Shown here piece after piece: positions 165 to 1,561 of a DNA stretch of 64,000 nucleotides. The first letter of the stretch is position 1, and each line of letters opens with the position of its first letter. The stretch comes from a virus (lineage: Duplodnaviria; Heunggongvirae; Uroviricota; Caudoviricetes), in the IMG/VR virus record IMGVR_UViG_3300021256_000058, positions 53,823 to 117,822 of that record; one strand, given 5' to 3'. Below the pieces are notes generated by a model. It had not been told where the DNA came from and searched no databases. It saw only the letters and a program-made list of their open reading frames with translations. The position numbers and the translations under genes were made by a program.

Positions 165-867
165 ACTTTTCGTAAAGTCCTTTTCTCATTTTCTTGTGCT
201 GTTTGAAGCAGTACGCAAGAATCACAGATTCAATTTCAACATCTTCAAGCCCGGTGTGAGACTCGGAAAAGTCCGGATTTTTGGTGATGAAGCTGTACAG
301 GACTTCAGCAGTTGCTTTCAGTCTTCCGGTTGCGGTGAAAAGTTCGTACTTTTCGCACCACTTGCGGAAAGTCGGCATTTTGTGAACAACGTCACGAGCC
401 ATTTTCATCGTGTCCCACCATTCAGTACCGAACGGGAACCAGTAACGCTGTGCGGATTTGGTAACATAGCGGAGTGTAACATCGAGAGCGTTCTTGTCAA
501 ACCGTGCATTGTGAGCGCAAACAAATTTCACGTTGTAGGTTTTCATGTCCTCAAGCATGGTCTTTCTGATTGTTGCGGTCGTGGCAAGAATCCGGCGGCC
601 TGCCTTGATGTCTTCCCAATACTGGGGGATTTTCTTGGCGTAGTATGCAGTTTTCATCAGTTCCTTTTCATCGAGAAAGATGTCTGCATTCACGAATGAA
701 CGGCGTAGATACACATTCCCGCGCTTGTCAATGATCTGCCAACCGCAGTCATATACGAGCACGCAGCTCATGTCCATTTTTCCGGTCTCATCGACCTGAG
801 TGTTGGCGGTCTCGGTATCGAGGTCAAGGATGTGGGTGATACGCTTGTCGATCTTGTTAGCAGTCAT
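163..867 (-). CDS. DEDDh (DnaQ-like) 3'-5' exonuclease
   Basis: Motifs DLDTET, HNARFD and H..LEDVE. True start is MTANKIDK at 867 after AAGGAG; the track extension to 927 runs through the promoter. Confidence 0.8.
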   Translation of the reverse strand: MTANKIDKRITHILDLDTETANTQVDETGKMDMSCVLVYDCGWQIIDKRGNVYLRRSFVNADIFLDEKELMKTAYYAKKIPQYWEDIKAGRRILATTATIRKTMLEDMKTYNVKFVCAHNARFDKNALDVTLRYVTKSAQRYWFPFGTEWWDTMKMARDVVHKMPTFRKWCEKYELFTATGRLKATAEVLYSFITKNPDFSESHTGLEDVEIESVILAYCFKQHKKMRKGLYEK

Positions 868-956
868 TGTTTTGTTCTCCTTTGTTCTTTGTGACTTTAG
901 TATACCACAGCTTTTGGTATTTGTCAAGCACTTTTTTCATTTTTTTTATTTTTTTT

Positions 957-1167: not shown

Positions 1168-1194
1168 AAAAAAATGCCCGACCTTTCGTCGGGC
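1168..1194 (-). terminator. Intrinsic terminator of the ~320-nt RNA unit
   Basis: GCCCGAC-GAAAG-GTCGGGC followed by ATTTTTTT on the minus strand. Confidence 0.8.
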
Positions 1195-1493
1195 TGGGAG
1201 TTCTGTGGTGACTTCCACACCGGATTATTTCGCATACCGCGCGTCGCTTGGATTTCGGGGAGCGAACCCCCGCCGCACATCTGGGCTGCGGATCACCCAA
1301 AGGGCTAAGCCCTGGTGCTGACCCTGCCACTTCAGGCCAGCCTGCCCCGTATTCCTTAGGCGCCCCGTTGGTGGCGGGCCAAAGGCGCCCCGCATCTCTG
1401 CGGTACTCCCGCCCAGTATTTTTGTCATCGCGCCCGCGGAACGGCGCTCCAGTATGAACTTGTCGCATCGTGGTGTCTCATCTCCCTTCGATG
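1168..1493 (-). ncRNA. Candidate ~320-nt GC-rich, highly structured non-coding RNA
   Basis: Perfect TTGACA(1522-1527)-N17-TATAAT(1499-1504) promoter and intrinsic terminator at 1168-1194. Many hairpins; no credible ORF fully inside the unit. Confidence 0.65.
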
Positions 1494-1561
1494 GTTTAAT
1501 TATAGCACTTGCGGCTTGATTTGTCAAGACTTTTTTTCAATTTCCGCAATTTTTTTTCGGC

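Follow-up and report, generated by a model that had tools for sequence, protein, structure and literature searches.

On the minus strand of a tailed-phage genome (Caudoviricetes) we found a short unit that, judged by comparison with its homologues, is a free-standing gene whose RNA product is folded, non-coding, strand-specific and modular. The unit lies at positions 1168-1527 of a 64,000-nt stretch of DNA (hereafter the window), which covers bases 53,823-117,822 of the 181,822-bp IMG/VR record IMGVR_UViG_3300021256_000058, a record with direct terminal repeats. This is a real phage RNA family that has apparently not been described before. We consider it fairly probable that the unit is a stand-alone early gene for a stable, folded non-coding RNA (ncRNA) of ~323 nt, which would act in trans by binding a host component. 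The initial annotation, made from the letters of the window, had proposed a promoter-to-terminator unit with no gene in it and called it a candidate for a new large structured RNA. The word large could not be upheld for an RNA of ~320 nt.

The unit carries its own promoter and terminator on one strand, as would be expected of a structured ncRNA gene. The proposed layout was borne out by a sigma-70-type promoter without a single mismatch and by a GC stem followed by a U tract (Table 1). The promoter is kept at the equivalent place in the homologues, and every homologue variant has both a promoter and a hairpin/U-run terminator. The terminator stems themselves are wholly different in sequence, and in the related loci L061, L057, L058 and L068 other perfect stems stand in place of the one found here. 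The predicted RNA is G-rich (110 G vs 89 C), and the G+C content of the unit is 61% while that of the genome is 37.5%. A second GC hairpin abuts the terminator. L055-type contigs show the same arrangement, though the stem differs in sequence and the hairpin is kept by compensatory changes. It could be a back-up terminator, an upstream element of the next promoter, or a regulator site. Between the inverted repeat (1134-1167) and the -35 box that comes next there are ~55 nt, and the repeat is followed by a TTTTGTGCAA box.

A BLAST search of the unit against GenBank phages gave no match. The neighbouring exonuclease-like gene led us to 53 related phage loci, in none of which BLAST, nhmmer or a covariance model found the RNA core; the only similarity was in promoters and terminators. 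Since gene callers elsewhere would have translated the same GC-rich DNA, we used the 118-aa open reading frame (ORF) of the unit as a protein probe. This protein search with its cluster members, together with pattern scans of metagenomes and of IMG/VR, recovered 19 loci. Exact-pattern IMG/VR scans with three segments found only L076 and L077, both identical to L068. The comparative tests described below were made on 12 distinct homologue sequences.

A covariance model of the RNA (R1) scored the known homologues at 169-223 bits (15 loci), and beyond these it detected no locus in 731 kb of sequence from related phages. In the genome of the window it detected one copy (217 bits), and no second copy of the sequence was found there. 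R1 found no copy in five related phage genomes (89-100% complete), and the RNA was missing from the other related loci that we scanned (L002-L054). Since it is absent from related genomes and occurs in few loci, the RNA is an accessory, sporadic element of a hypervariable early region. Six GTDB matches to a 19-base pattern, one of which was inspected by eye, look like chance because none of them BLAST-matched the RNA at E<=1e-5; at that sensitivity, no bacterial homologue was found in GTDB genomes.

The RNA has a conserved fold. We aligned the 5' 180 nt of the distinct sequences, derived a consensus with RNAalifold and tested the pairs on a model-based alignment. The consensus has eight helices in the 5' domain (P0, P1, P1b, P2, P3 in two parts, P4 and P5). 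Standard pairs were observed in 99.6% of 479 cells (40 consensus pairs), compared to 41-50% when the 3' partners were slid by 1-3 columns. Six pairs, located in P2, P3, P4 and P5, were changed on both sides, while the slid controls had none or one. The covariation score was 0.150 against 0.077 in shuffles, and 0 of 500 shuffles reached 0.150. Moreover, 33 cells hold G-U pairs that would be A-C mismatches on the opposite strand, and therefore the structure belongs to the RNA made from the minus-strand promoter. The initial annotation had let its structured RNA depend on compensatory changes among homologues, and the six double-change pairs are such changes.

The individual helices changed in different ways. 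P0 is paired in 12 of 12 sequences, with one U-G to U-A change and no double change. In P2 the hairpin is replaced by CCCC-GAAA-GGGG in L068 and by CCCC-GAUGA-GGGG in L060. P3 contains a double change of U-A into C-G in type B and a change of G-C into G-U in L061. The outer part of P4 (GCUGG/UCAGC) becomes GCCAC/GUGGC in type B, with three double changes and one change from a wobble to a Watson-Crick pair, and the loop is kept as A[A/C]G[U/C]GG. The closing pair of P5 is A-U, G-U or G-C within type A, and the stem reads GGGGG/CCCCC in type B. The joiner that precedes P4 contains CCUAAG. Further downstream we read the sequences by eye: P6 is swapped for UCAC-[CACCUGAGA]-GUGA in L057, and P7 for CGGGGAG/CUCCCCG in L058 and L060 and for GAGAC/GUCUC in L068.

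UCCGC in the loop of P1 is complementary to GCGGG in that of P1b. The contact has a C-G to G-C change in all eight A' sequences and is paired in 94% of cells, although slides of +/-2 columns still pair in 76-78%, because the loops are CG repeats. With this caveat, we read it as a kissing-loop or pseudoknot contact. The initial annotation had placed a pseudoknot elsewhere, between the CCCGCCA loop and UGGGCGGG. That pairing loses two of its six pairs in 8 of the 12 homologues (the A' group), whereas the alternative contact made by the P1 loop is compensated. Two more of the proposed helices did not survive the comparison: the long-range helix UGGGCGGGAGU/ACUCCC-A-GCCCG, said to compete with the terminator, is down to four pairs in the A' group, and the CAUCG/CGAUG hairpin at the 5' end is not conserved. 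All five hairpins that had been listed (CCGCA-GAGA-UGCGG, GGCGCC..UUGG/CCAA..GGCGCC, GGGC-UUA-GCCC, GGGG-UUCGCU-CCCC and GGUG/CACC) are present, and four of them are kept by compensatory changes in the homologues.

The homologues differ from each other by blocks. Homology between the types starts at a conserved start codon, which is also one of the recombination breakpoints; others follow P3/P4, precede P7 or are close to the 3' end. The RNA is therefore modular, with a 5' domain, a 3' module and leaders that are exchangeable and recombine between phages. Together with the 3' module that stands alone in type C, this suggests that the RNA is built of separately functional domains.

We found the unit not to behave as a protein gene in any of the comparisons. 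The ORF that begins at the conserved start codon has 6, 37, 80, 95, 106, 118, 124, 135, 148, 149 or 295 codons among the homologues, and the C-termini are unrelated. The frame is changed or broken in L056, L061/L062, L058, L060, L064 and L068. The breaks come from 1-nt indels in L056 (one deletion) and in L061/L062 (two insertions), from 5 inserted nucleotides in type B and, in L068, from a G-to-T substitution that turns codon 7 into TGA. The variable columns are distributed 18/18/19 over codon positions 1/2/3, with no excess at the third position. In most homologues the frame passes the terminator. Pfam and PHROGs gave no match for any ORF of the unit, and the 'proteins' annotated in the region vary in length without any relation and carry only the name 'hypothetical protein'. 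The one ORF that the initial annotation had named as able to overturn its non-coding claim (118 aa, 1112-1468) thus fails the frame and codon-position tests; broken frames and the lack of codon-position bias remove that objection. The further statement that no ORF with a proper Shine-Dalgarno (SD) sequence ends inside the unit needs qualifying. The stop codon of the 118-aa ORF (1112-1114) indeed lies beyond both hairpin/U-run sites, but the ORF starts 12 nt after AAGGGAGA, and all leader variants carry an SD-like tract and a start codon.

No known RNA family was recognised, as the initial annotation had supposed. Rfam at the gathering score, searched over the whole window, placed no family in the unit. 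At E<=10 over 900-2000 it gave nothing relevant, and inside 1195-1490 only a chance 23-nt snoRNA match on the other strand. On the homologue contigs there was nothing at E<=1. ARAGORN found no tRNA or tmRNA in the window; all 33 tRNA genes of the genome are located at 12.7-27.2 kb. A tRNA-like reading was also discarded on the P7 loop, in which UUCGCUC lacks the T-loop A58. The 181.8-kb genome encodes no reverse transcriptase (RVT_1) and has no match to TROVE (Ro60). The lack of both genes and the single copy of the sequence argue against the template RNA of a retron or diversity-generating retroelement (DGR) and against a Y RNA/YrlA; the template RNA of a defence-associated reverse transcriptase (DRT) was rejected on the same grounds as the retron.

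The start of the RNA deserves separate attention. Each of the four unrelated leader types has an SD-like tract as well as an ATG or GTG. Counted from this start codon, the first six codons change only between ATG/GTG, CGA/AGA and ACT/ACG, which leaves the peptide unchanged, and codon 7 is GGA, or TGA in L068. In the partition function, GGGAG (type A) or GGGA (type A') pairs with CUCCC (1196-1200) at p ~0.99; in type B this is not clearly so. The purine tract may act as a 5' stabiliser or ribosome dock, or else form the 5' side of a terminal helix whose other strand is CUCCC. A passage of PMC7509114, citing Hue et al. 1995, states that RNAs of Bacillus are stabilised by SD-like tracts close to their 5' ends, to which ribosomes bind without translation; one such tract is that of phage SP82.

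We propose the following mechanism. Host RNA polymerase would transcribe the RNA right after infection, within an early module of small genes with promoters of their own. The 5' purine tract would then protect the RNA, either by pairing with CUCCC beside the terminator or by docking a ribosome in the way of SP82 and STAB-SD RNAs. The folded body would work in trans as a decoy or sponge for a host macromolecule, for example a protein that serves in transcription, translation, RNA decay or defence. We propose such titration because the RNA lies in an early takeover region, is dispensable among the relatives, has conserved loops and joiners and shows no antisense target in the phage. A protein decoy or a translation-related RNA had been suggested in the initial annotation, and both are possible.

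Several observations weigh against the reading that we favour. The minimum-free-energy z-score of the whole RNA against dinucleotide shuffles is modest (-1.97). The informative changes come from about four lineages (A, A', B/B' and B''), and because these are so few the covariation rests on few events; besides, the structure was derived from the very sequences used for testing it. In the 3' halves of types A and B the MAFFT/RNAalifold alignment is unreliable, therefore we claim no consensus there. Compared to L069, which is 98% identical, the conservation of the unit is unexceptional: at most one difference, a level that 21.5% of equally sized windows also show. Transcript, transcript ends and abundance are all predicted. 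Finally, the conserved single-stranded segments have no antisense targets in the phage genome beyond chance, which we count on this side as well.

Of the other explanations, one gives the start of the RNA a role of its own. In it the SD-like tract, the start codon and MRQVHT would load a ribosome, which either terminates at once (as in L068) or reaches the kissing-loop domain and, with no stop codon ahead of the terminator, stalls. The RNA would then serve as a micro-ORF or a trap for ribosomes, burden trans-translation or regulate in a peptide-dependent way. The recurrence of tract and start codon in the unrelated leaders, homology that begins at the start codon, the three changes that preserve the peptide and the lack of an in-frame stop ahead of the terminator in most homologues all speak for it. 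However, three changes are too few for a test, and the outcome of translation is not conserved, since codon 7 is mostly Gly and a stop in L068; for these two reasons we rated ribosome loading below protection. Moreover, types A and B have a poor SD spacing of 12-13 nt, and the fold prediction pairs the purine tract in A and A' and also the GTG in A'. GUUC of the block doubles as a strand of P0, and long stop-free frames are expected by chance at 61% G+C. We regard this explanation as unlikely. A more speculative idea, to which we give little credence, is that these TAG-recoding phages carry modular early 'docking' RNAs: a ribosome-binding site and a start codon fused to a kissing-loop domain, stopless before the terminator, would capture host ribosomes or overload their rescue during takeover, or the RNA would assemble itself through its complementary loops into a particle made of RNA only, like ROOL and GOLLD, with hairpin modules shuffled between phages like protein domains.

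It is doubtful that the unit is a decaying remnant, i.e. a former gene cassette that is still transcribed and whose hairpins are a by-product of its G+C richness. The sporadic distribution, the mosaic breakpoints, the modest z-score and the unexceptional conservation against L069 would fit with this. In contrast, a remnant would not be expected to have double compensatory changes in six pairs and near-perfect pairing in all lineages, to keep its loops and joiners while the stems change, or to retain a promoter and a terminator in every variant.

A cis-acting element, for example an R-loop replication primer or a transcriptional insulator between early units, is highly improbable. The transcript is indeed G-rich and stands behind a strong promoter, and TTGTAAC repeats are found nearby (1908-1930 in the window) and more densely at genome 47.0-47.4 kb. 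Nevertheless, related complete phages lack the RNA, which would be unexpected for an origin, the helices are kept by G-U pairs specific to the RNA strand, and the defined terminators are predicted to yield a discrete RNA. The repeats themselves form TTGTAAC(C)/GGTTACAA clusters between early units, with two copies in the window and at least six both at genome 47.1-47.3 kb and in L058; they are possibly iterons or regulator sites, and possibly mark an origin.

Just as improbable is a ribozyme or an intron-derived RNA, either group I-like or a self-cleaving RNA of a new kind. It would suit the GC-rich fold of many helices, the GNRA loop of P2, the invariant CCUAAG joiner and the tertiary contact between loops, and the initial annotation had seen in some segments a resemblance to the P, Q and R elements of group I introns. 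This resemblance did not hold. Neither Rfam ribozyme families nor Intron_gpI (RF00028) matched even at E<=10, and the unit lies between a promoter upstream and a terminator downstream with no flanking exons or split gene. Neither the initial annotation nor our analysis identified P7 of such an intron or a guanosine site, and the proposed P, Q and R segments sit in P2, P6 and the 3' module, where they have other conserved partners.

Least credible is an ordinary small protein gene without known relatives, in the frame of the 118-aa ORF (1468-1112) or in another: the ORF follows an SD-like tract and in several public assemblies gene calling had put proteins at this place, but besides its broken frame and lack of codon-position bias it reads through two terminators, its product is rich in R/G/P/A with no Pfam or PHROG match, and a search of 5.8 billion clusters and 1.84 billion representatives returned only the known loci plus one low-identity match, P0008 (32%), which was not examined. 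Gene callers routinely mis-annotate GC-rich RNA genes of this sort as hypothetical proteins.

Table 1. Features of the RNA unit and related elements. Positions are those of the window unless a locus or the genome is named; RNA sequences are written 5' to 3'.
Feature	Position	Strand	Description
Sigma-70-type promoter	1499-1527	minus	TTGACA (1527-1522), 17 nt, TG-extended TATAAT (1507-1499); 12/12 matches
Predicted transcription start	1492	minus	A, 7 nt past the -10 box; from promoter geometry
SD-like purine tract	1481-1488 (+5 to +12)	minus	AAGGGAGA; near the 5' end, as in 5' stabilisers
Conserved start block	1448-1468	minus	AUG-CGA-CAA-GUU-CAU-ACU-GGA, start + MRQVHT; 12/12 distinct homologues
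P0, long-range helix	1344-1459	minus	GUUC (1459-1456) with GGGC (1347-1344; consensus GRGC); junction closer around P1-P3
P1 hairpin	1430-1447	minus	GCGCC-[GUUCCGCG]-GGCGC, 8-nt loop; 100% paired, one C-G to U-G change
P1b hairpin	1404-1418	minus	UACU-[GGGCGGG]-AGUA, 7-nt loop
P2 hairpin	1390-1403	minus	CCGCA-GAGA-UGCGG, GNRA loop; G-C to C-G double change
P3 two-part hairpin	1359-1389	minus	Outer GGCGCC/GGCGCC, inner UUGG/CCAA, loop CCCGCCA
Joiner	1347-1360	minus	CCUAAGGAAUACGG; nearly invariant, one A/G change among 12 distinct homologues
P4 hairpin	1317-1341	minus	GCUGG-CCUG-[AAGUGG]-CAGG-G-UCAGC; 5 + 4 bp, one-base bulge, hexaloop
P5 hairpin	1301-1313	minus	AGGGC-UUA-GCCCU
P6 hairpin	1273-1291	minus	CCGCA-[GCCCAGAUG]-UGCGG
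P7 hairpin	1256-1272	minus	CGGGG-[GUUCGCU]-CCCCG
3' module	1191-1272	minus	95% identity over 82 nt to L057
Intrinsic terminator	1168-1194	minus	7-bp GC stem GCCCGAC-GAAAG-GUCGGGC (1194-1176) + U7 (1174-1168)
Second GC hairpin	1139-1167	minus	9-bp stem, 9-nt loop; U5 at 1134-1138
Type A	Window, L069		98-99% identical
Type A'	L055, L056, L061/L062, L063, L065, L066, L067		Type A body; promoter and leader unrelated
A' body, different 3' end	L064		
Type B	L058 = L059		
Type B'	L060		
Type B''	L068 = L076 = L077		
Type C	L057		3' module alone (window 1272-1191), own promoter and terminator, ~150-nt unit
Unit X	L056:1430-1690, L063:630-890, L066:815-1075, L064:55-310 and 700-870		
TTGTAAC(C)/GGTTACAA clusters	1898-1945; genome 47030-47420 (outside the window); L058:3400-3560		

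The genome gives some indication of the host. Its major capsid protein is nearest to that of phAss-1 (51%) and, more distantly, to those of Enterococcus and Bacillus Herelleviridae-like phages. PMC10607447 describes a group of gut phages that recode TAG and presumably infect Clostridia; phAss-1 is one of its members. The 33 tRNA genes are on the minus strand at genome 12,742-27,175, outside the window and ~30 kb away from the RNA unit, and include a tRNA-CUA amber suppressor (labelled Pyl by ARAGORN), which is consistent with TAG recoding of late genes. The source is a TAG-recoding, phAss-1/Herelleviridae-like phage of the gut or rumen, probably with a Clostridia host. Consensus sigma-70 promoters are dense on the minus strand at genome 44-61 kb, nearly one for each small gene, and the RNA unit lies inside this region. 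A layout with one promoter per small gene resembles the host-takeover module of SPO1-type phages. Other promoter units of this genome that seemed to have no ORF were rejected as candidates; they were mostly longer leaders followed by normal genes, or tandem promoters.

Among the neighbours, the 234-aa gene on the minus strand (163-867) matches phrog_20187 (E 1.5e-40), with a weak match to a DNA polymerase exonuclease subunit family, and is a useful marker of the lineage, as it gave the 53 related loci. Directly upstream of the RNA, the window has a small gene at 1729-1562. In type B'' and type C contigs (L057:60-230, L077:4830-4950) this place is held by a different gene, which encodes a conserved early protein of ~40 aa (MIREIFSSEEAAREYARNEHGHVYRQADGTYLVLVMDD and relatives). 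In A'-type relatives it is held by a GC-rich promoter-to-terminator unit of ~220 nt, unit X, which has no Rfam match and is absent from the genome of the window. L064 has a diverged second copy of X fused to the 3' end of the RNA, in which a hairpin is compensated (CUGCGC/GCGCAG to CUGGGC/GCCCAG). Finally, the window contains a second ORF-less unit on the minus strand (946-1080), with a TTGACA-17-TATTAT promoter and an RNA of ~90 nt. The 5' GAGAGAGG of this RNA pairs with the 3' CCUCUCUC, and an A/U-rich tail follows. The unit has counterparts with 96% conservation in L061, L062 and L069, and the more distant L028 matches 70 nt of it at 84% identity. A motif GCG(C/G)UAU..AAAU common to the RNA, this second unit and unit X was too loosely defined to be kept.

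Structured RNAs outside known families are rare leads to new RNA biology. Few are known from the early (host-takeover) regions of phages, whose products usually disarm the host. As this lineage recodes TAG, interference with host translation is already within its life cycle. If a partner of the RNA were found, it could reveal RNA-based takeover or counter-defence in phages of gut and rumen Clostridia.

The RNA shares single traits with several known systems. What it has in common with group I introns are GC-rich helices, a GNRA loop and short P-, Q- and R-like segments, but the introns come with a family-model match, exons and a P7/G-binding site. 6S RNA and Ms1 are abundant, stable, structured binders of host proteins, the mode of action that we would propose here; 6S RNA is a long rod with a central bubble, whereas this RNA has multi-branched short hairpins and no Rfam match. 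The phi29 pRNA is likewise a phage ncRNA with an early promoter and loop-loop pairing, which in pRNA is critical for function. It differs in phage type and size, with no Rfam match to this RNA, and since close relatives lack this RNA, an essential role in packaging is unlikely for it. The early RNAs of SP82 and SPO1, which bear a 5' polypurine stabiliser, and the STAB-SD of Bacillus cryIIIA have an SD-like tract within 15 nt of the 5' end, a strong sigma-A promoter and, as here, the setting of a phage of a Gram-positive host. These are mRNAs, while this RNA encodes no protein and its tract may pair near the 3' end. ROOL, GOLLD and raiA-type RNAs are stand-alone, GC-rich orphan RNAs with many helices, often borne by phages in gut and rumen Firmicutes, in which loop-loop contacts are architecturally important. 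No covariance model of ROOL, GOLLD, OLE, raiA or HEARO matched this RNA, which at ~320 nt is much shorter than ROOL (~580 nt) and GOLLD (~800 nt) and does not lie beside a tRNA cluster. With the ROOL, GOLLD and raiA-type RNAs it nevertheless shares the stand-alone, GC-rich architecture of many helices, the phage setting and the loop-loop contact.

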